A stretch of 64,000 bases of DNA from Candidatus Kapaibacterium sp. (GCA_963665665.1 OY762428.1:1920001-1984000); one strand, 5' to 3'. Counted from the stretch's first letter, positions 2,473 to 17,116 are shown. A program made the numbers and translations. Notes: generated by a model from the letters alone, not told the origin.

Positions 2473-3456
2473 ATGAAAAAGATTCTGCTTCTTGCATTTT
2501 CCGTATTCCTTATATCTAACCTTTTTTCAAAGGCACAGTCGCCTGACGACCTGATTGCCGACTATCTTAAGCTGGTTGCAACCGGCCGTGTTGACGAAGT
2601 GAAAATGGCTCTGCCGGACTTACTGGCAGCATATCCCGAAGACCCGGGTGTAAACCTGGTTCACGGAGTAGTTATCGAGGACGCATTCAGGGCACTTGAT
2701 ATTTACAAAAGGATTATTAATGATTATCCTGACAGTAAATGGGCAGACGATGCTTACTGGCGCGTTGTTCAGTTCTACGCGGTGCTTGGGGATACAACAC
2801 AGGCAAGGATATCTCTTCATAAATTCCGGCAGAACTATCCCGATTCGGAATATATTGGCCCGGCAGCCGATGTTGTTCGATCATCGGTAGGGTTGGCCCG
2901 CAGCGGAAAGAAATCAACAACGAACAGCTACAGGCCTGAGTACAAACCTAAAGAAAGAGTTGTCAGGCATGAAGAGGATGACCTTGTTGATCCTTCTACC
3001 CAGCCGGTAACAAGGATTCAGCGAAAAAAGGAGAAACCTGTTTTTAAATACGAACCTAAAGAAAATACAAACACTATACCTAAAGAAGAGCAGCCGGCTT
3101 CACGCCCTGTGATCACACAGCCGGAAGAAAAATCTGCTGAGCCTGTGAAAACTGACAAAACGCTTGCTAATGTAGAACCTACCCCGGAAACGCAGGTTAA
3201 TAATTCTGAGCCGTCCGGCGAATCAACCGGCTGGGGGCTTCAGGTGGGTATTTATAGCAGTAAAGACGCCGCAGAGGCCGAAATGAGGAAATTCCTGCGC
3301 CAGCGTATGCGTACCGAAGTTTTTCAGAAAGTTATAAACAATGAAATGCTTTATGCAGTTGTTATAGGTAATTATAATTCCAAGGAATCAGCCGAGGCTG
3401 CTAAGCAGATCGTTCAGCAGCAATGCAGTTGCACACCGATTGTTTTTAAAAAATAA
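2473..3456 (+). CDS. SPOR-domain protein with N-terminal TPR-like region
   Basis: Signal peptide MKKILLLAF; helical YPDSKWADDA repeats; Pro/Glu/Lys linker; C-terminal WGLQVGIYSSKDAAE...YAVVIGNYNSKESAE SPOR pattern. Confidence 0.85.
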   Translation: MKKILLLAFSVFLISNLFSKAQSPDDLIADYLKLVATGRVDEVKMALPDLLAAYPEDPGVNLVHGVVIEDAFRALDIYKRIINDYPDSKWADDAYWRVVQFYAVLGDTTQARISLHKFRQNYPDSEYIGPAADVVRSSVGLARSGKKSTTNSYRPEYKPKERVVRHEEDDLVDPSTQPVTRIQRKKEKPVFKYEPKENTNTIPKEEQPASRPVITQPEEKSAEPVKTDKTLANVEPTPETQVNNSEPSGESTGWGLQVGIYSSKDAAEAEMRKFLRQRMRTEVFQKVINNEMLYAVVIGNYNSKESAEAAKQIVQQQCSCTPIVFKK

Positions 3457-3486
3457 TTTATTTGATAAATCTATAGCTTTTTAATT

Positions 3487-3518
3487 AAAAGGGTATTCTG
3501 CCGGGAATACCCTTTTTG
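3487..3518. terminator. Bidirectional terminator between convergent genes
   Basis: aaaagggtattc-tgccgg-gaataccctttt. Confidence 0.8.
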
Positions 3519-3555
3519 TGCTCATAATTTCTATACTTAGTATGGATAAAGTTTA

Positions 3556-4020
3556 TCAATTAAACGACGGGAATGAGCCCTTTACACAGATTGGAACTTT
3601 AGTAATTACACCAATATCCATCACGCTGTTGTCTTTTATCAGCGCGGCATCCCAGTATGTAAACAGCATATAACCCATATACAATCCTGTTTGCAGGCCG
3701 AATTTCACATCGAGGTCTTCTTTCCGGATAAGCGCAGCCCCGCCAAGCTTTGCCCCGGCAAGCAGAAATGATGTTTCCAGGCAGGCCGATACCTTAATAT
3801 CCTTGTTCATTATGTCAATATTCACTACGCCGCCATATATAAATGTAATATCATCATAAGCTGTCAGGCTGATTTCCGGGCCGTACATAAAATCAACTTC
3901 TCCCGCGCCGAGCCTCCAGCCGAATTTCATTCCCACATTCAAAAACATATCCCTTTGGGCTATCATATTGGTAGTTGAAAATAATAACAGGATTAAGGGT
4001 AACAATATCAGTTTTTTCAT
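3556..4020 (-). CDS. Exported hypothetical protein, small beta-barrel-like
   Basis: Signal peptide; amphipathic Gly/aromatic strands; paralog of 4075-4533. Confidence 0.7.
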   Translation of the reverse strand: MKKLILLPLILLLFSTTNMIAQRDMFLNVGMKFGWRLGAGEVDFMYGPEISLTAYDDITFIYGGVVNIDIMNKDIKVSACLETSFLLAGAKLGGAALIRKEDLDVKFGLQTGLYMGYMLFTYWDAALIKDNSVMDIGVITKVPICVKGSFPSFN

Positions 4021-4074
4021 TGTTTTTTTCTCTGTAATATTTAAAGAAAATAGTTAAATTTTGATAAAATTGAA

Positions 4075-4533
4075 TTACATGTGTGGCAGGCTGCCGGACA
4101 ATCTCAACGGGGCTTTCAGTATCCCGCCCCAGTCCTCTACCGTAATTTTATTACCGAAAAAAGCTTTCTCCCAGTATATATAAGCCAATAGTCCTGTATA
4201 AACACCTGTTTGCAGGCCGAAGTTCAAATCTAAATCCTTTTTCCTTATTAGCATAGCGCCTCCGAGTTTAGCGCCGATAATGAAAAATGAGCCTTGTAAG
4301 CTGGTCGAAATTTTTATATGCTCATTCATAATGTCAATATTAAAGACGCCGCCCAGAGATGCGAACGAGCCTTTCGTCAGGCTGATCTCAGGGCCGTACA
4401 TAAAATCAACTTCTTTTGTGCCCAGCCGCCAGCCGAATTTTACTCCGATGTTGAGAAAAAGAGGTTCTTCAGCAAATAATTCCGCTGATGATAATAGTAA
4501 TAGAAATAATGGTATTATAAATAACTTTTTAAT
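4075..4533 (-). CDS. Paralog of 3556-4020 with ATT in place of the start ATG
   Basis: Frame extends upstream of the ORF-track start: IKKLFIIPLFLLLLSSAELFAEEPLFLNIGVKFGWRLGTKEVDFMYGPEIS aligns with the paralog; in-frame TAA lies just upstream. Confidence 0.7.
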   Translation of the reverse strand: MKKLFIIPLFLLLLSSAELFAEEPLFLNIGVKFGWRLGTKEVDFMYGPEISLTKGSFASLGGVFNIDIMNEHIKISTSLQGSFFIIGAKLGGAMLIRKKDLDLNFGLQTGVYTGLLAYIYWEKAFFGNKITVEDWGGILKAPLRLSGSLPHM

Positions 4534-4554
4534 TGTTTCTTACCTTCTATTATT

Positions 4555-5166
4555 TTAAATTTTGAATTTAATATATATGTACAAAAATTGAGGCCATTCC
4601 TTATCGGCAGAATTTAGCGACGAGCCCCCCACATTAAAATCCAGGCTAACATTATCAATTGCCCTATATGATAATCCGATCAATTTCGAATCGCTAAGCC
4701 TATATACCAGTTCTATTCCTAAATCCACTGCTCCATAAAATCTGTTTTGAACTGTTAACGCCATACCCAGGTGAAAAGCCATCCCTATATTCTCACTATC
4801 TGAAAGCTTCATCGAGTTAACTTTTAATGATAACGAATGAATAATACCTGAATAATATTCATCATTCAATTTCCAATAATTTCTGTCAGCGTGTTTATTA
4901 TTGTCTTTTGCAGCGTACCAGTTAAAATTCATCAATTCAAAAGATATTAGAGAGTTGTCAGAGGGGAAATATTCGAGTCCTAAAAGAATGGAAGCGCCGG
5001 GGGAAAATGGCCAATCATGATTTGTTAGAATGGCTCCAGCCCCTGCGGAAACAAATAGTCCGTCATTTATTTCAATTGTATCCTTAGTATTTGCAGCATT
5101 CGCTTCTTTTGCACAGAAAATAATAAATAGAATTAGTGTGAAGTAAGGCAAGCACTCTTTTTTCAT
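4555..5166 (-). CDS. Outer-membrane beta-barrel-like hypothetical protein
   Basis: Signal peptide; C-terminal YIYIKFKI; shares NWYAAK and YRLS/N motifs with 5451-6098. Confidence 0.7.
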   Translation of the reverse strand: MKKECLPYFTLILFIIFCAKEANAANTKDTIEINDGLFVSAGAGAILTNHDWPFSPGASILLGLEYFPSDNSLISFELMNFNWYAAKDNNKHADRNYWKLNDEYYSGIIHSLSLKVNSMKLSDSENIGMAFHLGMALTVQNRFYGAVDLGIELVYRLSDSKLIGLSYRAIDNVSLDFNVGGSSLNSADKEWPQFLYIYIKFKI

Positions 5167-5179
5167 ATCAAATCCGGAA

Positions 5180-5443
5180 AAATATTACAATGATTTAATC
5201 GGTAAAACTATTATTTACAACATCTTATTCATATGCTTCTTAGCAGTAAGAATCTGTATTATATCCGCTCGACTCAAAATAATCATAATTGTCAGTAATA
5301 CTCTCCAATTATTTGCTGAATTGTGATTTCAATAAATTATATGCTTCTATTGTAATTCTTGAGTGAACGTACTTGTTATCATGTGCATGTATCGTGTTAT
5401 ACACCAAAAATATTTGTGATAAAGGCAATAAAAATAATTTCAT
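5180..5443 (-). pseudogene. Degraded remnant of a secreted-protein gene
   Basis: ATG 5443 gives MKLFLLPLSQIFLVYNTIHAHDNKYVHSRITIEAYNLL, stop at 5309, then multiple stops. Confidence 0.35.
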
Positions 5444-5450
5444 AACTTTT

Positions 5451-6098
5451 TCATATTTTAAACCTGTAATAGCAATTAATCATATAAAGGTCGGGAACAT
5501 AGCTCGTGCTGCTGCAACCAGCCGGGCAAAAATGAAAATCAAACATCCTTCTGTAAGTGAGAGAAAGTTGAAAGCGTTTATTAAGCCTGTAATATACAGC
5601 GCCGCCGAAATCCAGGTCCCTATAATCATTATCGCTTGCAAACAGAGGGAAGCCAAAGTGAAGTGAAAGCCTGACCGGCCATTCCCGGGGCAACAGATAT
5701 ACTTTTGGGGCAAGAAAGACAGCCCACGCTGAATAGATGTCAGAAGAAACATGAGTATAAGTACTAAGATTATACTCTTTGGCACCCTCTCTTTTTGCGG
5801 CATACCAGTTGTGGCCGTATATTTCGAAAGCGGCATAGTGAGATGAAAACACCGGTATTTCGAAGCCCAGGGCGGCCGCTATTCCGGCTTTCATTGTCCT
5901 GCCGTAAACATCCTTATCATTTGCTATACCAAGTCCGGCGATTGCCACAAGGTAGTAATCATCAGGCAATATTTCCGATGGCCTTTTCTGCGGCTCCGTT
6001 TTACGGAGTTCTGATAATGTCTTCGGGGCATCGCCGGTTTCCCGGGAAAAGGAACAGCCGAACCCAAAAAAGAATATGGCAATTACCATGAATTTCAT
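5451..6098 (-). CDS. Outer-membrane beta-barrel-like protein, paralog of 4555-5166
   Basis: Signal peptide, NWYAAK motif, C-terminal CYYRFKI. Confidence 0.7.
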   Translation of the reverse strand: MKFMVIAIFFFGFGCSFSRETGDAPKTLSELRKTEPQKRPSEILPDDYYLVAIAGLGIANDKDVYGRTMKAGIAAALGFEIPVFSSHYAAFEIYGHNWYAAKREGAKEYNLSTYTHVSSDIYSAWAVFLAPKVYLLPREWPVRLSLHFGFPLFASDNDYRDLDFGGAVYYRLNKRFQLSLTYRRMFDFHFCPAGCSSTSYVPDLYMINCYYRFKI

Positions 6099-8125
6099 TT
6101 TATTAACTTGTAATAATAAATTTTATTTGTTTTTGTTTTTACAACCACAATACCAGGCTGTTGGGTTAAATTTGAATACATATCCTCTACAGAAAGACAG
6201 GTGCCGGTTAAAATGCCATCAATGGAGTATATGTTAATTGATTCAATATCTAAGGAGTTGATATCAGGCAATCTATCCGGAGTTCCGGAATAATTTAATT
6301 CTTCTACCGAAGTAACTTTGTCACATTTCCAGAGTCTGCCTCTATCATCAAGGTAATAGACAATATTATCAATATTAATTATTTCATAAATTGATCGAGG
6401 ATTGGTCGCCACATGGATTGGAATCTTTGTAATATCAGTTAATTGCACATCATCAATATCTTTTACAAAATATATATTTTCATTGGCAGAAACTAACAAG
6501 TCGTCTCCATATTTTTCAAAACACCCAGTTGCATAAAAAAAATCTATTCGTCTAAATAAAATATTTTCAATTTCAAGATTTTCAGAATCTATTAGTTGAA
6601 TATCACTTCCACGCGGATTTATGATTAAATCATTACCATTGAACAAATATGAATTGGTTATTATATATTCGTGATATATTGGATTGTCCAGGTTTTTGAT
6701 TTCGTTATTATAATCATATGAACATAGATTGAAGGTATTACCCTCTATTCTCTTAAAAAATAAAATTTTATCATCAGTAGCTTTTATTATACGGAAACAT
6801 TTATCCACATAATATCCTCTAAGAATTTCCAAAGAATTGAAATCCAGTTCCATAACACTATTTTCTGTTGAACACCAAATCGAATTCGTTGAAGAGGAAT
6901 AATGTATACTTGAAAGGGTTTCTCCGAAATCATGTTTTAGTGATAAATTATTTTCAATATCATAAATAACAATCTGATTTGTGATTTCCTGATAGATAAG
7001 ACCTCTGGGATAAACAGAATAAGCGTTTTGAGCTGATATATATATATAATTTAATGGTTCGTTATCAACGGTTTGTATCAACATTCTTGGCGGATCAGAA
7101 TAATTTTGATTATAGAGAATTCCGAGATAACCGTTAATGTTAATCATTGTTCTCGGACATGTTATATTGCTCATATTGATTAAGTATTCTGCCTTACCTT
7201 CAATGATGGTATAAATACTCGGCCCAATAGAATAAACAATTTGGGAATTCCCATAAATATGTAAAGCCAAAGTGCCAATATTTGCTGTTTCTTTTGTTTC
7301 AAGGTTGTATGTATTTACTTCTCTGTTCTCATCACGATAATATATCAGGTTGTCTTTGAATCCAATTTTAAAGCTAAAGTAATATCCTGTCGGGACTTCT
7401 GTTTCTTCTTTTTTGTTTACATCATAAATATGCATTTTGGAAAACGATCCGTTTTCATAATATCGGAAAATGATATAATCATTACCATTGTAGCGATAAT
7501 GATAAAAGTCTTCTAAATCTATGGATGTTAGCTCTTTAATCAATTTGAGCTCGCCGTTAATGAATTGATAAACATCACTGTTCCTTAACAAAATGAAAAG
7601 GTTGTTTTCATCAACAGCAAATACTTTTTCAATTGTAGAGCCGTCAGGCAATGAAAAGAAATCGGAATATTTTTTCAGGGTTTCTTTGTTTTTATAATCA
7701 TATAGGATAATATGATAGTTGCTGTAAAATAATAAATTATCGTTGCAGTAGATAATTGACTTAAAGCCTTCTAATCTCGGGTCCTGATAAATTCTCCTTT
7801 CATTTGTTTCATAATTCAGATATAATATCTTATCTTCACAAATTGATAACCATAAGTTGTTCTCATCATTCAGGCATGAGCCACCCCCTAAGTTCAATAC
7901 ATCGTCATCAATATCTTTGAAAAGAAGATAATTAAAGTTCATAATCAATTTATTTTTTCGAAATAACCAGACTTCATCGCCAGCATTGACTTCGACAATA
8001 CTCTCATCCGCATTTACTGAATTTGAACGTAGTTCAGCCGAAGGATATACAGACACTAATTCGCTTCCACGGGATTGAATAATTGCGGAAAAAAGTATAA
8101 GCAGAATAAATATTGATCTTTTCAT
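6095..8125 (-). CDS. Secreted beta-propeller-like protein with degenerate T9SS-type CTD
   Basis: Signal peptide; repeated short beta strands; C-terminus INIYSIDG...PGIVVVK...KLIK. Confidence 0.7.
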   Translation of the reverse strand: MKRSIFILLILFSAIIQSRGSELVSVYPSAELRSNSVNADESIVEVNAGDEVWLFRKNKLIMNFNYLLFKDIDDDVLNLGGGSCLNDENNLWLSICEDKILYLNYETNERRIYQDPRLEGFKSIIYCNDNLLFYSNYHIILYDYKNKETLKKYSDFFSLPDGSTIEKVFAVDENNLFILLRNSDVYQFINGELKLIKELTSIDLEDFYHYRYNGNDYIIFRYYENGSFSKMHIYDVNKKEETEVPTGYYFSFKIGFKDNLIYYRDENREVNTYNLETKETANIGTLALHIYGNSQIVYSIGPSIYTIIEGKAEYLINMSNITCPRTMININGYLGILYNQNYSDPPRMLIQTVDNEPLNYIYISAQNAYSVYPRGLIYQEITNQIVIYDIENNLSLKHDFGETLSSIHYSSSTNSIWCSTENSVMELDFNSLEILRGYYVDKCFRIIKATDDKILFFKRIEGNTFNLCSYDYNNEIKNLDNPIYHEYIITNSYLFNGNDLIINPRGSDIQLIDSENLEIENILFRRIDFFYATGCFEKYGDDLLVSANENIYFVKDIDDVQLTDITKIPIHVATNPRSIYEIINIDNIVYYLDDRGRLWKCDKVTSVEELNYSGTPDRLPDINSLDIESINIYSIDGILTGTCLSVEDMYSNLTQQPGIVVVKTKTNKIYYYKLIK

Positions 8126-8354
8126 TTTGGGCTTACTCCGTTTTTAATAATTAAAGGTAATATAAAAAGTGTTCGAAGAATACAATATACAAAAACTGTA
8201 TAAGAATAGAACAATTACCATGAATTTCATTTTCCTGAATATTTCACTGCCTTCCACTTTTTTTTTGCCCCCATCCTATAAAGCGCTTCATTGGTAATTC
8301 CTTACGTTTTAATCGTATATTTAGTAATAGCGCTTGCCAATAAGCATATATATA

Positions 8355-9017
8355 CTAACGGATTATTTGATTCATAACTTTTTGTATCAGCCCGTAAGGG
8401 ATTTTAAAGTGATTCTCATTTCCCCATAAATCTATAAGTAGATTCTCCGGCTCGGAATTTGGCTCCCATGAATCGCTTTCTTCGTGATTATCCGCATAAA
8501 TGCCATTTCCAAGATTGTAACCGTAGTTGAATTCTGTTACCCAGGGGAAAAGGCATGTCAAATCTTCTTTTTCACCTTCAATATAAATGATCGCCCTGTT
8601 GGAAACAAAGCCAATAACAGGTTCTTCAATATGGCTGGATATTTTTCCCGTGGGGAAATCCTTATCCACCAAAAGAATAAACCCGGCCCCCAATGATGAA
8701 GGCGGCATGTTGGTACAAGCCAGTGTTGGCGGATAATCTTTGAATTCAACCAGGAAGGTCATATTTTCCCAATCGATATCTCCTTCGCCCCAAACAAAAA
8801 CATGATCCTCGGCTGATACGGTTACAGCCCATGCAATCACTACCTTAGCGTCAGGTGGTATATCCCGATTGTTGGGATTTTGGATTTTGCCGGATACTTT
8901 ATAAATAACTTCTTTAACATCGTTATTGTTGTCATCGTCATTTTCGGTAATAGTGGTTGCATCGTTGCAAGAAATCAAGGTAATGATAAGAACTAATAGA
9001 ACTGATATTTTCTTCAT
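8355..9017 (-). CDS. CxDATT-family lipoprotein (group A body)
   Basis: Lipobox LISC-NDATT; SGKIQNPNNRDIPPDAK motif. Confidence 0.8.
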   Translation of the reverse strand: MKKISVLLVLIITLISCNDATTITENDDDNNNDVKEVIYKVSGKIQNPNNRDIPPDAKVVIAWAVTVSAEDHVFVWGEGDIDWENMTFLVEFKDYPPTLACTNMPPSSLGAGFILLVDKDFPTGKISSHIEEPVIGFVSNRAIIYIEGEKEDLTCLFPWVTEFNYGYNLGNGIYADNHEESDSWEPNSEPENLLIDLWGNENHFKIPYGLIQKVMNQIIR

Positions 9018-9036
9018 ATTTTATTCCTCTGTTAAA

Positions 9037-9636
9037 TTAAAACCAATATGGAAAAGAGGGCATTGGATTATCCGCAATTAATTGTATCAATAAATTGTTT
9101 TTATCATCATACTGTTCCCAATACCCGTTAACTTCATCGGTATAAACTGCCGAAGCAAAATTATAGCCATTTTTGAAAGAAGCAGTCCATGGAAGAAGAT
9201 TTTTTAGTTCGCTTCTGTCGCCGGCAATATAAATAATTGCCCTGTCCGACAAAAAACCTAAATAGTCGTCTTCATTGGGCTCGCTGAATTTTCCTTTTGG
9301 AAAGTCATTTGTTACAAACATTAAATAGCCGACTGCAATCTGCGCGTTGCCAAAAGTATTAATCACTTCCTGGTCAGGTATGGATTCCATGGGTATTTTG
9401 AAAGATAGATCGGAAAAATTTATATTAAAATCTCCGCTGGAATAAAGGTACTGTTCGGAATTATCAATAACAAGCCATACCAGCGCTAATTTACTATCGC
9501 CGGGAACGGAGCGGTTATTGGGGTTTTCAATCTTACCTTTTAAAACAAACATATCAGCGTCAGGGTCTGTTGTCGCATCATTGCACGAGAACAAAGAAAT
9601 AGAGCCGAAAAGGAATAATATTAGGAGCTTCTTCAT
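9037..9636 (-). CDS. CxDATT-family lipoprotein (group A body)
   Basis: Lipobox LFSC-NDATTDP; GKIENPNNRSVPGDSK. Confidence 0.8.
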   Translation of the reverse strand: MKKLLILFLFGSISLFSCNDATTDPDADMFVLKGKIENPNNRSVPGDSKLALVWLVIDNSEQYLYSSGDFNINFSDLSFKIPMESIPDQEVINTFGNAQIAVGYLMFVTNDFPKGKFSEPNEDDYLGFLSDRAIIYIAGDRSELKNLLPWTASFKNGYNFASAVYTDEVNGYWEQYDDKNNLLIQLIADNPMPSFPYWF

Positions 9637-9694
9637 TTACAAACCTTCTTTTATATCCAATTAAAATCATTATTTACCTGATGAATAATACACT

Positions 9695-10465
9695 CTAATT
9701 CTTCACATTAAAGGGATAATAGTAGCTGTTGCCGTTGTTGGAATATTTCATGATATAAAAGCCGTTATCAAGATCCCCGCCGTTGAATGAATAAACTTGT
9801 GGTCCGACAGGATATACTCCGCTATATACTGTTTTTACATTAGTAAATTCCGAATCTGCTTTATGTATGCTTACCATTAATGGATCGGTACTTTCTACCT
9901 GATATTGTATCGTTCCCACTTCTTTAACCGGTTGTGGCCTAATAGCCATATTTGATTTTTGTTGTGTCAGGTCAAAAACAAGCTTTGTATCATAGTCGTC
10001 CATCAAATTGAGATAGTAATTGCCACCTTCCATCCAATCCGGCGCTATTCCGTATTTGTAAAGGAACCTGTCCTTGTCCTGGTAAATCAGATCATATTCA
10101 AGAACTGTGAATGTATCGGTTTCGAAAGTAATTTCATCGCCTATCGAGGCCCGTATTTTGTAATTGATATTTTTTTCGGCATTAGAAAATACAAAGAAGC
10201 CGTCCAGAGTATCAGAGGACTTTGTATTAGTTGTGGCTGCTATATTACCGCCTTCAATCAGTTCCAGCTTAATATCCGAAAACCCCTTATACTGCAAATA
10301 ATTACCTACAAATTGGCCGTTGTCCAGTATGGAGTCGCATTTGAAAGTTATCAGCCCGATAATATTGATACCATTATTTTCGCTGTTATCCGGTTTTGTA
10401 GTTGCATCAGGGCAGCCCGCCAATGCAAACATGCATAATAAGATAATAATTGATAGTTTTTTCAT
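9695..10465 (-). CDS. CxDATT-family lipoprotein with T9SS-CTD/FlgD-Ig-like C-terminus
   Basis: Lipobox LAGC-PDATTKP; C-terminal IRPQPV...IQYQV...LDNGFYIMK. Confidence 0.75.
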   Translation of the reverse strand: MKKLSIIILLCMFALAGCPDATTKPDNSENNGINIIGLITFKCDSILDNGQFVGNYLQYKGFSDIKLELIEGGNIAATTNTKSSDTLDGFFVFSNAEKNINYKIRASIGDEITFETDTFTVLEYDLIYQDKDRFLYKYGIAPDWMEGGNYYLNLMDDYDTKLVFDLTQQKSNMAIRPQPVKEVGTIQYQVESTDPLMVSIHKADSEFTNVKTVYSGVYPVGPQVYSFNGGDLDNGFYIMKYSNNGNSYYYPFNVKN

Positions 10466-10474
10466 GATATTTTT

Positions 10475-10879
10475 TTATTCAGTTATTGAAATATTTTTAT
10501 TTACTAAAGAAGTTTGGCCCTTATTTTCAACCATTGCAGTAATTTGAACATCTCCCGCAATTATTGCTTTAAAGGCCGATATTGCAGAATACCTGTTATC
10601 ATCTTCCGAGCTGTTTGTAGTAAAACTTATAGCCATTTTCCCAATATCGTTGTTGGCATATTTGTATTCAATTTTAACATCGGCATATACGAGTTTTTTG
10701 TTTGATTGAATTTCTACAATTATTGAATCCTGGATTGAAAAACTTGATTTGTTCGTTTTTTCAGAATCGAGATAGGTAAGAATTCCGATTTCAAAATCTT
10801 GTTCCGGATTTGTTGTAGCATCATCACATGAAATTATTGCAAACATGCTTAATAAGATAATAATTGATAGTTTTTTCAT
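10475..10879 (-). CDS. CxDATT-family lipoprotein (small Ig-like body)
   Basis: Lipobox IISC-DDATTNP. Confidence 0.75.
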   Translation of the reverse strand: MKKLSIIILLSMFAIISCDDATTNPEQDFEIGILTYLDSEKTNKSSFSIQDSIIVEIQSNKKLVYADVKIEYKYANNDIGKMAISFTTNSSEDDNRYSAISAFKAIIAGDVQITAMVENKGQTSLVNKNISITE

Positions 10880-10904
10880 TGTATTCTCTTAGTACTATGT
10901 ATTT

Positions 10905-12080
10905 TCAATATTCCCACAGGGGCTTCTTAGATATATGCCAACCTGTTCCGTTATCAGCTTCCACCAAAATTTTCCCGTCATCTGTTGATAAAATTAACGG
11001 CTTCCAATACATATCAAAAAACAATACCTGCTCTTTTGTTTGTCCATTATCTGATGATTTGTAAAAACCTTCGGATTTCACGGAATCTGCCTCGATTTCT
11101 GTTCGCACAAAGTATATATTGTTTGTATTGTCCACATCAATATAATCCAAATTACAGTTGTTGTCCGGATTATTATTATCCAAATATTGTATGTCCCGTT
11201 CATCCCATATTATGCCACCATCCGAAAAATAAGTAGTTGATCCGACTTTCGGTATATACGCCCATTGTCCGTTCATGCATTCTTTAACTGTAAATGATTC
11301 ATCAGGATAATGGTCATAATTTATTCCACTTACATTCTCAAGAGATTTTGATGTCATATTGTCAGAGAAATAAAATCCCTTATAAGTAAATATTATCAAC
11401 TTATCGTTTATCATTTCCATTTCACATCCAAATATTTCACTGGTTTTCTGCCATTCGGCGCTGAATGATTCCTTATAAAATAAATCATACCAGCCCGCTC
11501 CGAGATCCACCGAAATTAAAATTTCCCCCTTATTGTTTACAAAACCGTTATTGATCTTATAAACTATCTGCTTTGGATTGCTTGCCGTCCAGATGACAGG
11601 CATATCGATACTTATCCATTTATTACCATTTGCATTGTACATAACAATACAACTTGAGTCGCTAATTTCCGCAGAAGAATTATTTACAACATTCCTGCCG
11701 AAGATATAATACATATTATCATTCTTGTCTTTAGCAAATTTCCTGAAATAAATACCGTATTCTTCTGAACTTGTATATTTCAGCGGTTTTTCAATAGTGG
11801 TTTCCCATGTTGAATTAAACTCATCAAATTTGTAAATGTATAAATCCCGGTCTCTCTTTTTATCATCATTGTCAACTCCGTTGCCCCAAATTTCATCATT
11901 TATTTTTGTTACTGAAATAATATTTTTTTCACACTTTATCGCTGTAAAATTGTTTAGAATTTCAGTTTCATAGTCATAGCCGTATAAATTATTATCATTA
12001 TCATCAGGAGTTACTGTCGCATCTTCGCAGGAAATAAATGCAAAAAAAGCAGATAGAAGAATGATGGATATTAGTTTCAT
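10905..12080 (-). CDS. CxDATT-family lipoprotein (BNR/Asp-box propeller-like body)
   Basis: Lipobox FISC-EDATVTP; Asp-box-like YFSDGGIIW and YKSSDNGQT. Confidence 0.75.
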   Translation of the reverse strand: MKLISIILLSAFFAFISCEDATVTPDDNDNNLYGYDYETEILNNFTAIKCEKNIISVTKINDEIWGNGVDNDDKKRDRDLYIYKFDEFNSTWETTIEKPLKYTSSEEYGIYFRKFAKDKNDNMYYIFGRNVVNNSSAEISDSSCIVMYNANGNKWISIDMPVIWTASNPKQIVYKINNGFVNNKGEILISVDLGAGWYDLFYKESFSAEWQKTSEIFGCEMEMINDKLIIFTYKGFYFSDNMTSKSLENVSGINYDHYPDESFTVKECMNGQWAYIPKVGSTTYFSDGGIIWDERDIQYLDNNNPDNNCNLDYIDVDNTNNIYFVRTEIEADSVKSEGFYKSSDNGQTKEQVLFFDMYWKPLILSTDDGKILVEADNGTGWHISKKPLWEY

Positions 12081-12103
12081 TTCGTCACCAGTTATTATTA
12101 TTA

Positions 12104-12751
12104 TTAATTTTTCGGTTTCCAGTCGGGATAACGTTTTTCATTTTCATCCCAAAGCTTGCCCAGGTCAATTACAATATCAGATTCTGAACTGCTTATGCTC
12201 CAGCCTTCCAAACCTGTTTGAGCATTTGTTGTGTAATCGGCGCTTCCCAAACTAAAGCCTGCTGAAAATCTATCTACCCAGGGCATTGACATACTGATAA
12301 TTCCTTTTTCTCCTTCTATAAAGATCAAAGCATTATCTGTTACCGTACCAATTTTCGCCCCATAGATGTCGTTCCAGGAATCATATTTGCCGAGTGGATA
12401 ACTTTCCTTAACAAGCATAATATATGCAACCCCGAGTTTCCCGGAATTATAGGCGTTAATACATGTATCTGACGGTAACTCACTAAGGTCAATATGAAAA
12501 GTCATATCTGACTTATTAAAAGTACCTTCATGAGAAACCCAGGCATAAGACGGAGATGCTTTATATACATGCCACAACAGTACTGCTTTAGCATCCTCAG
12601 GGATAAAATTTTTATTTGGATTTAATACCTTTCCACTGATTTCTTTCAGATTCTCCCAAGTGTTTGTTTTAGGGTCAGGTTTTGTAGTAGCGTCCTTGCA
12701 GCTAATGAATGCAAAAATGCCGAGAAAGAAAATGATTGATAGTTTTTTCAT
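12104..12751 (-). CDS. CxDATT-family lipoprotein (group A body)
   Basis: Lipobox FISC-KDATTKP; SGKVLNPNKNFIPEDAK. Confidence 0.8.
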   Translation of the reverse strand: MKKLSIIFFLGIFAFISCKDATTKPDPKTNTWENLKEISGKVLNPNKNFIPEDAKAVLLWHVYKASPSYAWVSHEGTFNKSDMTFHIDLSELPSDTCINAYNSGKLGVAYIMLVKESYPLGKYDSWNDIYGAKIGTVTDNALIFIEGEKGIISMSMPWVDRFSAGFSLGSADYTTNAQTGLEGWSISSSESDIVIDLGKLWDENEKRYPDWKPKN

Positions 12752-12762
12752 GCTAATTCCTT

Positions 12763-13392
12763 TTATTTCCAGTTTGGAAATTTAATTTTAATATCATCAG
12801 TTTGGTCTTCTTCTAACATTAGTTCAATGTTATCAGTATCCGAATCAGGAATCCAATTGTCATGAACTTCGTTTGTATAAACACCTTCAGCCCAGTTGTA
12901 ATTCTCTGCCATATCATTTAGCCAGGGGTAATATTCCACAAAATTAGTCATATCTCCTGAAGTAAATATTATAGAATGACTTGAAACCGCTCCAATCAAT
13001 TTCGGGGCGTGTATTTCATCATCCCAGACACCTGTTTGAAAATCTTTTTGAACCAGAAATAAATAATTTACGCAAAAACTATTATTTCCATCAAGAGTTA
13101 ATGATAACGAATCCGGAATTGTCGATAAATCAACATCAAAAGACAAATTTGATTTTTTAAATTCAAACTCTCCCCATGTGTAAGCATAATCTCCGTTATT
13201 TTCTGATTGAACTAATGAATATAGAACAATTTTAGCATCGGTTGGAATATCCCTGTTGTTTGGATTTAATACTTTACCGCTTATTTTGAATAAGCTTCTA
13301 TCACCATTGTTGTTAACGGGACTTGTTGTTGCATCATCACAGGAAATGATTATAAAAAGGCTTAATAAGAATAAAATCGATAGTTTTTTCAT
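12763..13392 (-). CDS. CxDATT-family lipoprotein (group A body)
   Basis: Lipobox IISC-DDATTSP; SGKVLNPNNRDIPTDAK. Confidence 0.8.
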   Translation of the reverse strand: MKKLSILFLLSLFIIISCDDATTSPVNNNGDRSLFKISGKVLNPNNRDIPTDAKIVLYSLVQSENNGDYAYTWGEFEFKKSNLSFDVDLSTIPDSLSLTLDGNNSFCVNYLFLVQKDFQTGVWDDEIHAPKLIGAVSSHSIIFTSGDMTNFVEYYPWLNDMAENYNWAEGVYTNEVHDNWIPDSDTDNIELMLEEDQTDDIKIKFPNWK

Positions 13393-13443
13393 AGTTTGTT
13401 TCCTTGAGATTAGAAGTAAAAAATTTATTTACAATATTCTATC

Positions 13444-13575
13444 GGAGCTGTCCCAAAAATTCGAAAAGCTATTATTCTGAGTGCAGCGAAGAATCAATAA
13501 CCCGCATGAATACTGGATTCTTCACTTCGTTCAGAATGACAAATCGTAAAATATTTCATATCATAGAGACATCAC
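13444..13575. repeat. MITE/REP-like palindromic element, copy A
   Basis: Ends ctgtcccaaaa...gagacatc; inner arms ttctgagtgcagcgaagaatc / gattcttcacttcgttcagaatgac. Confidence 0.75.
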
Positions 13576-13588
13576 CTATTTTTTGTAC

Positions 13589-14773
13589 CTAAAAATTCAG
13601 CATAATTCCATAGTTCAAACTGATCTTGCCCGATAATTCATAGTTGCCGTTGTACCTGTATCCAAGTGCCGAACCTTCAATGGCAGCATAGAGTTTGATA
13701 ATTGTTTCCGGTTTCCAGATCAGGCCCAGCCTGGTTTTTACAAAAGGCCCAACGTTTGTTCCGCCTATGATGTTTTCAGAAAAGAATAAAACTGTCGGCA
13801 TTTTTTCATAATCAGCAAACTCATGCTTATATTTTAAGCCATATAAATTAAGGGATTTATTCAAATTCAGCTCATCGTTCCGGGCAATAAAAATATCATA
13901 GGTTTCCCTGCCCGCTTCAAATCCAAGGTAATCATTCTCATCCAGTTTCAGGCTTATTCCTACAGTGAAATTATTCAGGGTGTTGTCGAAGCTTGCGATT
14001 TGCAGCCTTTTCGGGAAAAGGTATATTCCTGTAATATTCGAGCTTGAAAGTTCAAATCCTGACAGAAAGCGCAATAAACCGGATTTCTTTTTGCCAATTA
14101 TGCCCGGCTCATTAATTGTGAGAGTAGCAGCATTGATAAAGTCAGTATCATTATATGTATAGCTGCCAATTGGAATGTTATTATTTTCCATTGCGATGTA
14201 TGCAATTTCAATTTCAGGGATTTTATCTACAGGAACTTCTTCATTTTCAATTTTTTCCGAAATGGTTTCATTTTTACTTAGTGAAACAATGCTATTTTCA
14301 ATAAATCTCTCTTCCTTTACCTTAGCAACAGGAGAGGAATAAGAAATCATCTGATCATTTTGCGATTTTGCTTTTTCTTCAATTGCCTTGGCTTCAATAT
14401 TATTTTCCGGCAGTAAAGTTGCATATTCCAGCGTAACATTTGAAGCATTCGAATCCTCGTCGGATAGAATTCCGTTGGCAAGGAATCCAAGGATAAACAC
14501 TGAAGCGAATATGCCGAATCTGAGTAAATAGGAAAGAATTGGCCCGGACTGATATATCCCTGCCGCCTTAAACAGTTTGGATTTACTGCTGGCATCAGGC
14601 ACAGCACGAATATTATCTTTAACAACCCCATTGTGGAACAGCATAAGCTCATGGAACTCATCCTGAAGCTCAGGGTTCCCGGCCAGGCCGTTAAACAGTT
14701 CCGACCTTTCGCCGGGAGTTGTTTCGCCGTCTTTAAAAACGTATAGCAAATCTATTAGTCGTTCATTTTCCAT
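13589..14773 (-). CDS. Anti-sigma factor, probable dual-membrane-spanning type
   Basis: Downstream of ECF sigma; N-terminal DGETTPGERSELF (Cys-less anti-sigma-like); TM at about residues 79-103; Glu/Lys/Ser-rich linker; amphipathic strands ending YGIMLNF. Confidence 0.7.
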   Translation of the reverse strand: MENERLIDLLYVFKDGETTPGERSELFNGLAGNPELQDEFHELMLFHNGVVKDNIRAVPDASSKSKLFKAAGIYQSGPILSYLLRFGIFASVFILGFLANGILSDEDSNASNVTLEYATLLPENNIEAKAIEEKAKSQNDQMISYSSPVAKVKEERFIENSIVSLSKNETISEKIENEEVPVDKIPEIEIAYIAMENNNIPIGSYTYNDTDFINAATLTINEPGIIGKKKSGLLRFLSGFELSSSNITGIYLFPKRLQIASFDNTLNNFTVGISLKLDENDYLGFEAGRETYDIFIARNDELNLNKSLNLYGLKYKHEFADYEKMPTVLFFSENIIGGTNVGPFVKTRLGLIWKPETIIKLYAAIEGSALGYRYNGNYELSGKISLNYGIMLNF

Positions 14774-14873
14774 TTCTAATTCTGCTTAGTAAAAATTACA
14801 AAATGATAATATTATCTGATATTTCTGATAAAGGCCTTCCCACCATATCCGGATGAACGGCTTTAGAAGCTTC

Positions 14874-15024
14874 GGAGGCTGTCTCAAAAGGTAGAATAAC
14901 TGTCATTCTGAGCGCAGCGAAGAATCTATAAACCTCATAAATACTGGATTCTTCACTTCGTTCAGCCTGCCCTCGATTAATCGGGGAATGACAACACACC
15001 AAAATTCTGAATAAAGAGACATCC
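14874..15024. repeat. MITE/REP-like palindromic element, copy B, with 21-nt internal insertion
   Basis: Ends ggctgtctcaaaa...gagacatcc; inner gtcattctgagcgcagcgaagaatc / gattcttcacttcgttcag[insert]aatgac. Confidence 0.75.
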
Positions 15025-15101
15025 AGTGGGGTGGGGTCGGGGAGACTAAAATCAATTAGTTTTCTCAGAATATCTATTTTTGCCAGTAAGCTATTCATTT
15101 T

Positions 15102-15653
15102 TCAACTCGCTTCCGTTTGATAGGATTTGATATATTCCCTGACTTCCCGTTTAGCCCTTACAACCCTGTTGCGCACTGTGCTAATCGGGATATCAAGTAT
15201 ATTTGCAATTTCTTTGTATGAGAAACCTTCAAAAACCTGAAGAATAAAAGCTTCCTTGTGTTCAACAGGAATTTTATTCAGTGCATGTTCAATAATTGAA
15301 TTCAATTCTATGCTTTCCATATTATTTTCAGTACAAACAAGATGCGATTCTTCAAGCTCAACATTTTTTGTTTTCCCGGATCTCCTTCTATTCAGGCATG
15401 TATTTTTTGCAATCCTGAAAAGAAGGCCGCTTATGTTATTTATTTCCCTGTTTTCTTTTATATAAAGCAGAAATTTCATCATAGCCTCCTGGAAGGCGTC
15501 TTCAGCTTCTGTTTTATCTCCCATAAACTTCAGGCAATAAGTATAGATTTGTGAAGAGTACAATTCATACACTCTTTCAAATGCTTTTTTATACTTACCT
15601 TTCCGGATGTATTTTATTATTTCCGTTTCACTATTTTCTGCTTTTATCGCCAT
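15102..15653 (-). CDS. ECF RNA polymerase sigma factor
   Basis: Region 2 AEDAFQEAMMK...LFRIAKNTCLN; region 4 FSYKEIANILDIPISTVRNRVVRAK. Confidence 0.93.
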   Translation of the reverse strand: MAIKAENSETEIIKYIRKGKYKKAFERVYELYSSQIYTYCLKFMGDKTEAEDAFQEAMMKFLLYIKENREINNISGLLFRIAKNTCLNRRRSGKTKNVELEESHLVCTENNMESIELNSIIEHALNKIPVEHKEAFILQVFEGFSYKEIANILDIPISTVRNRVVRAKREVREYIKSYQTEAS

Positions 15654-15664
15654 TCATTAACTAA

Positions 15665-15690
15665 GGCACATTAAAATTCAATTTGTTTCA
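15665..15690 (-). promoter_or_regulatory. Putative autoregulatory ECF promoter
   Basis: Minus strand TGAAAC-N16-TGCC ending 11 nt before the sigma ATG. Confidence 0.5.
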
Positions 15691-15728
15691 AAAATAATTA
15701 AAAAATTATGATGGGGACAAAACTTCTC

Positions 15729-15865
15729 TTGTGAACTATAGCAGCACGGAAAATTTACCTCATTTCCCAAACACTATTCTATCCGTATTATTACCCGCCA
15801 AAGCAGGGGCTTTGGCAGGAGGGGATAAACGATTTCTTCTCTATCCAAGACACCTGCCTGGGATA
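15729..15865. repeat. ~138-bp repeat unit downstream of the NYN gene
   Basis: ttgtgaactatagca...tacccgccaaagcaggggctttggcagg...cctgggata, matching 16714-16925. Confidence 0.85.
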
Positions 15866-15869
15866 ACAT

Positions 15870-16481
15870 CTAATTCCATTCGTTCGGTTTGGTAATCAAC
15901 AGGCCATCTTTTATTAAAAAGGAATGTTCTAATTGGCTGTTTCGTATATTATTTTCACTAATTGTAAAGTAACCATCCGATATATACCTTAATTCAAAAG
16001 ATGACCTTTTCGGAGGAAAAACAGAAATAAATCTTTTTGTCGGAAATAGTTCTTTGGCTCTTCTAATTGCCGGAACAAGGTCGCTATCCCCTGAAATTAT
16101 CAGAGCTGTATCATAGTTATCATTTACAGCATCAGTAAGAATTTCAACTGCAATATTAACGTCTGTTTCTTTCTCCGAAGGTAAATTTATGATGGATTGG
16201 CATTTCGGACATTTAATATGATTGGTATGATATTTTCCAAAATATATTTGAATATTATCTTTCGCCTTCAAAGCTTCAAGATATTTATTCTGTCTTTTTC
16301 TTTTATCTTCAGGATTTTCAATACGGGATGTAAAATACTTTACACTGATTAGTTCCTGCCCTTTTTTCAATAACCTGCAGGACAACTTATACAGATCAAG
16401 CCAATAATATTTCCTGCCATATTTATCCTTTAAGCCAAAATACAGGTTGAATCCGTCAATATATGTAATAACTTTTTTCAT
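15870..16481 (-). CDS. NYN-domain (LabA/DUF88, PIN-like) nuclease
   Basis: YIDGFNLY, EKETDVNIA, ISGDSDLVPA motifs; CPKC insert. Confidence 0.9.
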   Translation of the reverse strand: MKKVITYIDGFNLYFGLKDKYGRKYYWLDLYKLSCRLLKKGQELISVKYFTSRIENPEDKRKRQNKYLEALKAKDNIQIYFGKYHTNHIKCPKCQSIINLPSEKETDVNIAVEILTDAVNDNYDTALIISGDSDLVPAIRRAKELFPTKRFISVFPPKRSSFELRYISDGYFTISENNIRNSQLEHSFLIKDGLLITKPNEWN

Positions 16482-16713
16482 TTAATTGAATTATCAGCTT
16501 GACTTATATCTAAAATTATTTTATTTTGGTATAAAATATAACCCCGCAAAGGATAGTATCCTTTGCCTGACGCTTTCTGCAAAGAAAGCGTTTCTTTATT
16601 AAATTCAATTAAATATAAAAAATACTCAAGATATAATCAAAAGGAAAAATTTAATTTAGTCTTCTTCAACTTTTAATAATATATTGATATATCACTAAGC
16701 AATAATATCTAAT

Positions 16714-16925
16714 TTCTACCCGCCAAAGCAGGGGCTTTGGCAGGAGGCGGTAAACAATTTCTTCTCTGTCCCAAGCCCTGCCTGGGATAGTTGTGAACTA
16801 TAGCAACCCTGTCAATTTGCCTCATTTTCTCACACACTATTCTATTCGGATTTCTACCCGCCAAAGCAGGGGCTTTGGCAGCAGGGGATAAAGGATTTCT
16901 TCTCTGTCCCAAGCCCTGTCTGTGA
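16714..16925. repeat. ~1.5 tandem copies of the 138-bp hairpin-containing repeat
   Basis: tacccgccaaagcaggggctttggcag at 16717 and 16855. Confidence 0.85.
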
Positions 16926-17116
16926 TAGCCACCTCCCATCTGCTGAATGACTCCGAATATTCCTGACAATTTTCTCATGCATTCTGTCAATAAATAGCAT
17001 ACTTTTTTCCTTTATCATGAAAAATTTAGTAATTTGTAATATCATTGCATATCAGGCAATAATTTCAGGATTAATAGTCTATATTTGACAAGAGGAATAA
17101 CAACAGAGAGAAAACA

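Follow-up and report, generated by a model that had tools for sequence, protein, structure and literature searches.

What does an extracytoplasmic function (ECF) sigma factor control when a long run of genes for exported proteins follows its own gene on the same strand, and how might its anti-sigma factor respond to events at the cell surface? A stretch of 64,000 nucleotides (nt) from Candidatus Kapaibacterium sp. (GCA_963665665.1 OY762428.1:1920001-1984000; hereafter the window) raises this question. Over positions 3556-15653 every sizeable open reading frame (ORF) lies on the minus strand, and all 14 genes listed there by an initial annotation were recovered where it had placed them: an ECF sigma factor, an anti-sigma factor, seven lipoproteins, a 676-residue protein and four small proteins. 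We find that the core unit is most likely an operon of the sigma, anti-sigma and lipoprotein genes (8355-15690), presumably transcribed together. It probably acts as an autoregulated trans-envelope switch built on an anti-sigma factor with a barrel end, and is one of 16 parallel cassettes in its genome. The other 15 had gone unnoticed in the annotation.

The anti-sigma factor and its cassettes

The gene at the head of the block encodes an ECF sigma factor, as annotated. Its product matched Pfam Sigma70_r4_2 (1.1e-14) and Sigma70_r2 (9e-12), and exceeded the cut-off of NCBIfam TIGR02937 (88.8 bits, cut-off 42.9), with regions 2 and 4 only. The two best-scoring NCBIfam subfamilies stayed under their cut-offs (TIGR02985, 102.9 against 126.4; NF058625, 97.4 against 130).

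The anti-sigma factor had been described as a protein with a cytoplasmic N-terminus, one transmembrane helix, a linker and barrel-like strands ending in Phe, and structure prediction, chosen beforehand as the check on this description, bore it out. The AlphaFold2 model, for which a 64-row alignment of relatives was used (as it was for the family profile), had a mean predicted local distance difference test score (pLDDT) of 75.7. It contains four helices over residues 2-70 (pLDDT >90), a membrane helix at residues 80-105, a disordered linker of ~125 residues (108 to ~230; pLDDT <50 over 108-177, then low values) and a C-terminal part of eight long antiparallel strands (240-393; pLDDT >90). In Foldseek searches of the PDB the C-terminal part matched eight-strand outer-membrane barrels best (NspA, 2.5e-5; Ail; OmpA; the OprF N-domain), and it also matched designed transmembrane barrels. 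The protein ends in ...MLNF. Among the 16 paralogs the last residue is Phe in nine and Leu in five, and the signature ...Y-G-x-x-x-x-F/L recurs at their C-termini. There is no signal peptide, and the Lys before the membrane helix and the acidic run after it fit an N-in topology. On this model the anti-sigma factor seems to run from the cell interior to the outer membrane, into which its barrel would insert.

Could the C-terminal part instead be a periplasmic beta domain, and the protein an ordinary single-pass anti-sigma factor? No barrel family was found in it by sequence. Moreover, a protein anchored in the inner membrane would be an unusual client of the barrel assembly machinery, a problem raised by the authors of the study of Dma1, a barrel-tailed anti-sigma factor of Bacteroides (PMC10927553). 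Against these points stand the high confidence of all eight strands, their matches to NspA, Ail, OmpA and designed membrane barrels, the conserved end across paralogs and a linker of sufficient length to bridge the periplasm. We regard a periplasmic domain as very improbable.

The N-terminal helices are predicted to contact the sigma factor. Complex prediction for the sigma factor with anti-sigma residues 1-78 gave a score of 0.69, compared with 0.00 for the best of three controls, and passed a mark that is reached by 58 of 80 solved complexes and by 2 of 110 mismatched pairs. The three runs shared at least 83% of contacts, with partner pLDDT of at least 80. In the predicted complex helix 1 lies on sigma region 4, and helices 3-4 lie on region 2.

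Relatives of the anti-sigma factor are numerous. A full HMMER scan, which covered 1.84 billion representative proteins, returned 483 at E ≤ 1e-3, 115 of them at E ≤ 1e-10; the majority are ~400 residues long and match at both ends. When the 64 family members were compared with Pfam, RseA_N was found in four and zf-HC2 in one; a PDB sequence search with the family profile gave RseA (1or7 chain C) at E 0.19 and otherwise chance matches. A word-indexed homolog search with the anti-sigma sequence alone returned only itself, and with the 64-row profile it returned 34 proteins that are unnamed or called 'hypothetical' and have no Pfam domain. Looking up the clusters of ten relatives gave one informative name, that of a protein from a Kapaibacterium metagenome-assembled genome (MAG). 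The N-terminal part of the profile also occurs in other classes of the phylum, in short anti-sigma factors; in 10 of 12 loci their genes adjoined an ECF sigma gene, and RseA_N or zf-HC2 was recognised in some of them. There the same domain was also seen joined to a trypsin-like protease domain (L031:2481-3578) and to a CBM48/AMPK-type glycogen-binding module (L035:2326-2982, L036:2125-2787 and L038:1807-2517), which are unusual sensor ends for anti-sigma factors.

The family profile matched 16 proteins in the 5.46-Mb genome of the window, 15 at E ≤ 2.5e-42 and one at 6e-14; a doubtful match at 1.7e-4 was left out. An ECF sigma gene stands directly upstream in all 16 cassettes. In 13, the anti-sigma gene is followed by a gene for a signal peptide plus Cys (nine flagged by a lipobox pattern, the other four read by eye), with a spacing of -23 to +47 nt except in the window, where it is 196 nt. 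The remaining three have nothing further, an unclear ORF, and a pair of genes for proteins of 670 and 1088 residues. This last pair, in which both proteins are exported and neither is a small lipoprotein, belongs to the most divergent cassette (L029, G000:C1:1233987-1241334; the match at 6e-14).

The same arrangement extends beyond this genome. Of 31 related genomes 30 carried the family, and the number of matches per genome ranged from 1 to 15. At ten loci from relatives a sigma gene lay upstream in every case and a lipoprotein-like gene, recognised by pattern or eye, downstream in seven; one of the ten has products identical to those of another of our loci (L001, below) and is not independent, and the sequence of another stops directly behind the anti-sigma gene. 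Of 301 genomes sampled from the phylum, 94 had some match, among them every one of the 17 others that belong to the same family or order. Among the matches listed, both ends of the profile were covered only in the same family or order and in one genome of the same class; elsewhere they covered the N-terminal part only, bar two that covered linker positions only. This is a new, Pfam-invisible family of barrel-tailed anti-sigma factors, with 16 pairs (13 with a lipoprotein-like gene) in one genome, and it is common across the order. No paper on anti-sigma factors of this kind from Kapabacteria or Ignavibacteria came up in the library of papers searched, though supplements of the Dma papers might cover some.

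Which genes stay with the pair in relatives? The four closest loci in named genome records (L001-L004, found with a 3-row alignment) come from two Kapaibacterium MAGs, one 'Chlorobiota' MAG and one uncultured bacterium. Their sigma factors are 59-64% and their anti-sigma factors 36-41% identical to those of the window. In all four the two genes overlap without a gap, and one to three lipoprotein genes belonging to the families seen in the window (with the C-x-D/P-A-T-T start) follow within 4-20 nt, after which housekeeping genes begin. The 676-residue protein and the four small proteins have no relative in these four loci, bar a 65-residue match to the former in L003, on the opposite strand and ~7 kb away. 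The lipoprotein family with four copies in the window, a predicted beta-sandwich, occurs in 15 of 81 genomes of the order. A family anti-sigma gene lies directly upstream in 9 of 14 foreign loci, and none was found within the 1.1-1.5 kb flank in the other five. The sigma, anti-sigma and lipoprotein genes were linked in 13 of 18 loci in relatives. Thus, the synteny expected by the annotation holds for the lipoproteins and fails for the genes beyond them, and the conserved module consists of the sigma factor, the anti-sigma factor and the lipoprotein or lipoproteins. Compared with this module, the window locus has two repeat insertions and an expansion to seven lipoprotein genes.

In the proposed switch, the anti-sigma factor would hold the ECF sigma factor through its cytoplasmic four-helix domain, cross the inner membrane once and span the periplasm with its ~125-residue disordered linker. 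Its eight-strand barrel would sit in the outer membrane, by likeness to Dma1 of Bacteroides. By analogy with the same protein, when the outer membrane or surface is disturbed the tether would be cut and the sigma factor set free. It could then fire the TGAAAC...GTGCCTT promoter ahead of its own gene and so raise transcription of both genes of the pair and of the lipoprotein genes that follow. Gene content, the predicted fold, linkage in relatives and expansion of the family are observed; the signal, the proteolysis, the use of the promoter, co-transcription and insertion into the outer membrane are the steps that we infer in this scheme. Each cassette would comprise its own sigma factor, its own barrel-tailed anti-sigma factor and usually one lipoprotein; in the window the lipoprotein slot would have grown to seven, and two hairpin repeats would have been inserted between genes of the operon. 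Most likely the sigma factor controls its own operon, lipoproteins included.

The lipoproteins and the genes beyond them

Table 1. Features of the minus-strand block, from the candidate sigma promoter to the hairpin at its far end
Feature	Coordinates	Strand	Basis or remark
Candidate ECF promoter, TGAAAC-N15/16-GTGCCTT	15663-15690	-	Motif kept in 5/5 orthologous loci
ECF sigma factor, 183 aa	15102-15653	-	Pfam Sigma70_r2 and Sigma70_r4_2; NCBIfam TIGR02937
ORF of 100 aa across hairpin repeat, apparently spurious	14796-15098	-	No Pfam family
Hairpin repeat copy in 328-nt sigma/anti-sigma gap	14895-15005	-	Fold energy; 17-nt core
Anti-sigma factor, 394 aa	13589-14773	-	AlphaFold2 model, Foldseek, complex prediction, relatives
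Hairpin repeat copy in 196-nt gap ahead of lipoprotein 1	13465-13550	-	Fold energy
Lipoprotein 1, 209 aa, four-copy beta-sandwich family	12763-13392	-	Lipobox IISC, then DDATT
Lipoprotein 2, 215 aa, beta-sandwich family, modelled member	12104-12751	-	AlphaFold2
Lipoprotein 3, 391 aa, possibly Asp-box/BNR-type repeat	10905-12080	-	Lipobox; weak paralog match
Lipoprotein 4, 134 aa	10475-10879	-	Lipobox; NCBIfam matches sub-threshold only
Lipoprotein 5, 256 aa	9695-10465	-	Lipobox; its orthologs are the last operon genes of L001 and L002
Lipoprotein 6, 199 aa, beta-sandwich family	9037-9636	-	Lipobox, paralogy
Lipoprotein 7, 220 aa, beta-sandwich family	8355-9017	-	Lipobox, paralogy
Secreted protein, 676 aa, possibly a propeller sorted by the type IX secretion system (T9SS)	6095-8125	-	Signal peptide, Atlas lead
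Protein of 215 aa, remote paralog of the 203-aa protein	5451-6098	-	4-nt overlap with the 676-aa gene
Outer-membrane protein (OMP) barrel-like protein, 203 aa	4555-5166	-	Atlas lead
Protein of ~152 aa, paralog of its 154-aa neighbour	4075-4533	-	ATT where the paralog has ATG
Signal-peptide protein, 154 aa	3556-4020	-	Signal peptide
Bidirectional terminator-like hairpin between convergent genes	~3486-3515	both	Folding

The seven lipoproteins are lipoproteins by their N-termini, as claimed. In every one the lipobox Cys is at residue 14-15 and x-D-A-T-T/V comes next, and the genes, running from 13392 down to 8355, are separated by gaps of 9-58 nt. The acidic residue after the Cys is reminiscent of the lipoprotein export signal of Bacteroidota. 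Lipoproteins 1, 2, 6 and 7 are paralogs with 34-37% identity, and lipoproteins 3, 4 and 5 have only the signal peptide and the DATT stretch in common with the others. At the DNA level, the 5' ends of the genes (8928-13422) combine unrelated mature domains with a common signal peptide and C-x-D-A-T-T tether at ~70% identity, and the first 60 nt of lipoprotein genes 4 and 5 are nearly identical; these common ends suggest a leader module that spread by duplication or gene conversion.

The fold of the four-copy family was modelled for lipoprotein 2 (AlphaFold2; pLDDT 83.9, predicted template modelling score 0.78) and is mostly beta. No PDB entry matched the model at E ≤ 1e-3 in Foldseek, the best being EMC7 at E 1.7e-3. 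VIA also placed EMC7-type sandwiches first (Z 5.6), followed by carbohydrate-binding, transthyretin-like and pilin domains at Z 3-4.6, a range that the tool calls a common arrangement. Neither search went beyond a generic beta-sandwich. Lipoprotein 3 gave a weak, Asp-box-like match (E 7e-4) to the BNR/sortilin lipoprotein of another cassette, and lipoprotein 5 has two paralogs elsewhere in the genome.

The initial annotation had pointed to the NigD-like lipoproteins controlled by the Bacteroides systems; by sequence, those of the array are not NigD-like. Four of the seven lipoproteins were compared with the NigD1/NigD2 model NF051862, with a best score of 13.2 bits (lipoprotein 4) against a cut-off of 60. 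Across the whole genome the model gave no match above the cut-off, while a control genome, that of B. thetaiotaomicron, was matched. The Foldseek and VIA matches listed for the lipoprotein 2 model included no NigD entry.

What do the cassette lipoproteins do, if they are not of one type? Of ten compared with Pfam, five have unrelated folds (ASH-type Ig, BNR/sortilin, DUF4397, Laminin_G_3 and DUF5050) and five have no domain above cut-off. These five folds are of binding type, as is the sandwich found here, which resembles carbohydrate-binding and transthyretin-like domains. An eight-strand barrel has little room to bind ligands itself. The lipoprotein could therefore be the ligand-binding partner of the small barrel and each cassette a three-part sensor, with seven alternative receptors feeding one channel in the window, and the recurrence of the triad (in 13 of 16 cassettes here and at 7 of 10 loci from relatives, by pattern or eye) agrees with this. 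Position in the same operon is equally expected of an autoregulated output, however, and in Bacteroides the neighbouring NigD2 is a member of the regulon (PMC10927553), so that we hold a sensory role for the lipoproteins to be doubtful. We are just as hesitant about its wider form, in which the 16 cassettes would be orthogonal three-part sensors, docking of the lipoprotein on the barrel would give each channel its specificity and the receptor slot would have diversified to seven in the window. The preferred reading has the lipoproteins as output of the switch.

The block downstream of the array (3556-8125) is a different matter. According to the initial annotation the sigma pair headed the whole 12 kb, including a propeller protein and four small barrel-like proteins. 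The 676-aa protein matched no Pfam or NCBIfam family, the T9SS type A sorting domain models PF18962 and TIGR04183 included. Its description as a propeller keeps one foothold, an Atlas lead to T9SS-sorted propeller proteins at 0.90, with a recognition value below the tool's mark. Its last ~50 residues look like a T9SS sorting domain, by eye and from the same lead. Barrel likeness is likewise a lead, for the 203-aa protein, the one of the four small proteins that was examined for fold (Atlas, 0.97 to OMP beta-barrel clusters), and none of the four has a Pfam family. The ~152- and 154-aa proteins are 53% identical. The former had been drawn as an ORF of 108 aa (4075-4401) and really reads from an ATT at 4533, with the signal peptide next; the gene either starts at ATT or is a freshly disabled copy, and its signal peptide is intact.

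Are these five genes part of a single sigma-controlled surface and outer-membrane programme? They share one strand with the pair up to one terminator, and their products are all exported and have no paralogs elsewhere in the genome. Yet none of them lies near the pair in the four orthologous loci, where housekeeping genes follow the lipoproteins instead. Gaps of 229 nt (between the array and the 676-aa gene) and 284 nt (between the 215-aa and 203-aa genes) interrupt the block, neither with a sigma motif. We think such a programme distinctly unlikely; the link of the downstream block to the sigma factor consists of strand and proximity, and synteny gives no support to the claim that the pair heads all 12 kb.

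At its far end the block is separated from a convergent SPOR/TPR gene by the hairpin that had been proposed as a bidirectional terminator. As proposed, this has a stable fold on either strand (-15.4 and -17.0 kcal/mol), equalled by 0 of 200 shuffles; it is absent from the list of a simple terminator scanner. Beyond the other end of the block, past an NYN-domain gene, the plus strand encodes a 678-aa DUF4397 protein (17117-19153). DUF4397 is also the domain of a lipoprotein that follows another of the 16 anti-sigma genes (L017:2036-2776).

Candidate promoter, repeats and read-through

The sequence TGAAAC, 15-16 nt and GTGCCTT ends ~10 nt ahead of the sigma start codon in all five orthologous loci (the window and L001-L004), and the spacer around it is not conserved among them. 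We take the TGAAAC part to equal the -35 element of well-known ECF promoters such as those of SigW. The GTGCCTT form of the motif occurs three times in the genome. The copy at 15663-15689 is the only one with an ORF of at least 80 aa starting within 99 nt; one of the others stands 100 nt ahead of an 86-aa ORF. No copy lies ahead of the 676-aa gene or the small genes, and the upstream regions of the paralogous sigma genes in the genome have no common motif. From its position and conservation the motif is a candidate promoter for autoregulation of the ECF sigma factor.

Just upstream of this motif one copy of a second repeat comes to an end. The repeat, of ~120 nt with an internal palindrome, is present at 15729-15846, 16688-16771 and 16791-16909, on both sides of the NYN-domain gene (15870-16481), and a 27-nt piece of it has only three occurrences in the genome. 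It is perhaps a small mobile unit or the footprint of one.

Two copies of a dispersed hairpin repeat lie within the operon, one in the 328-nt gap between the sigma and anti-sigma genes (-31.4 kcal/mol, z -2.24) and one in the 196-nt gap between the anti-sigma gene and the first lipoprotein gene (-25.4 kcal/mol, z -3.67; 0 of 200 shuffles as good). Gaps of this kind are unique to the window locus among the 16 cassettes. The 17-nt core of the repeat occurs 23 times in the genome, Rfam gave no match at E ≤ 1 over 3000-17200, and the 100-aa ORF, which matched no Pfam family, appears to be the product of reading the repeat as coding sequence. Neither hairpin is followed by a run of T, and neither is listed by the simple terminator scanner, which gave 10 sites against 9.4 expected and thus no enrichment. 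The repeats could weaken or shape read-through from the candidate sigma promoter into the array.

Several results weigh against the switch as drawn. The barrel is not recognised by sequence: the anti-sigma factor matched no Pfam family at E ≤ 0.1, barrel families such as PF13568 included, and no NCBIfam family, and among the 64 relatives PF13568 was found in none at E ≤ 0.01 and PF13505 in one, weakly. The complex score may reflect likeness to solved sigma/anti-sigma pairs rather than binding by this copy; since complexes of this kind have already been solved, a pass is a sign of likeness and not proof of binding. Kinship with Dma1 was assessed through stand-ins. These were eight anti-sigma factors from a different class of the phylum, 425-489 aa long, each encoded beside an ECF sigma gene and six of them with PF13568. 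When the family was aligned with this set by hhalign, 122 barrel columns only were matched, with a probability of 48% and E 1.8e-4. In a 43-row tree the sigma factors of the stand-ins formed one clade (100/99) among non-barrel ECF sigma factors, apart from the 16 of this genome. Finally, the promoter motif has no copy ahead of the array, so that, if it is the promoter of the sigma gene, the lipoprotein genes could respond only by read-through, and the two intergenic hairpins could stop transcription before it reaches them.

The last points would also be expected if the sigma pair and the array were separate transcription units, with the hairpins terminating or processing the transcript and the array served by another promoter. 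The two long gaps with stable hairpins, found in no other cassette of this genome, speak for this, as does the missing motif. Against it, the hairpins lack the T-run and the scanner listing of terminators, and the orthologous loci carry the same genes without the gaps. Dispersed hairpins, moreover, often sit inside operons. We therefore give two separate units a low probability and retain one operon, read from the sigma promoter, as the preferred arrangement.

Comparison with Dma1 and other known systems

The closest described counterpart is Dma1 (BT_4721) of Bacteroides. Dma1 is encoded with the ECF21 sigma factor Das1 (BT_4720), which it binds through its N-terminus; a membrane helix and a long disordered region precede its eight-strand barrel, which is annotated as OMP_b-brl_2 (PMC10927553). 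Experiments placed Dma1 in both membranes, with the barrel in the outer one, a barrel fragment was found in vesicles, and Dma1 controls NigD1, NigD2 (BT_4719) and BT_1287 (PMC10927553). The likeness to Dma1 and Reo proposed in the initial annotation proved apt feature for feature: an adjoining ECF sigma gene, an N-terminus predicted here to bind the sigma factor, one membrane helix, a disordered linker and an eight-strand barrel. A lipoprotein gene stands beside the pair in both cases, NigD2 being numbered next to Das1, and both organisms belong to the same phylum by the NCBI taxonomy.

There are also differences. Dma1 matches PF13568, whereas the anti-sigma factor of the window does not; it is a protein of ~55 kDa, compared with 394 aa here; and three copies are reported from B. 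thetaiotaomicron, compared with 16 in this genome. The partner lipoproteins here have many folds, and none is NigD. The N-terminal domains of the stand-in anti-sigma factors do not align with those of the family, and hhalign with a single stand-in found nothing (probability 0.4%). The match to Dma1 is well founded for architecture and gene order; membership of the same family by sequence is not established.

The sigma trees are compatible both with common descent of the two, followed by deep divergence, and with independent fusion. In an approximately unbiased (AU) test on a rebuilt 41-row tree, from which two very long rows had been left out, one clade of all 25 barrel-linked sigma factors, a group named after seeing the first tree, was not rejected (p-AU 0.456). 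The bolder proposal, of separate origins for the barrel fusion in this lineage and in Bacteroides Dma, is neither supported nor rejected by the sigma tree. The locus had been assigned to a different lineage, which is right at the level of class and wrong at that of phylum: Kapaibacterium, the genus to which two of the four closest loci are assigned by name, belongs in the NCBI taxonomy to class Eximiradiia of phylum Bacteroidota. The restriction to Bacteroidota that is stated for the Dma family (PMC10927553) is therefore not broken by the present loci.

For Dma-type anti-sigma factors, signal sensing and assembly are still open questions. Here the same architecture is found in a family that is recognised by no domain model, in 16 copies that are each wired to their own sigma factor and usually to their own lipoprotein. 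This 16-fold wiring suggests a modular device for signalling in general, and not one specialised in the regulation of vesicles. The cassettes offer many natural variants for asking what the barrel senses, with the adjacent lipoprotein as the first candidate partner.

Two better-known systems resemble parts of the proposed switch. With RseA, the class I anti-sigma factor of sigma-E, the family shares a four-helix N-terminal domain, predicted to lie between sigma regions 2 and 4, and the weak RseA_N and 1or7 matches given above point the same way. The two differ in what lies at the other end, a soluble periplasmic domain in RseA and a predicted outer-membrane barrel in the window. In FecA/FecR/FecI, and in the SusC-linked ECF/anti-sigma pairs of Bacteroides, an outer-membrane component signals to an inner-membrane anti-sigma factor and its ECF sigma factor, and such systems have multiplied into many parallel channels per genome, as the cassettes have here. 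Their outer-membrane transducer is a separate, 22-strand TonB-dependent protein, whereas in the window a small barrel is predicted to be fused to the anti-sigma factor itself.

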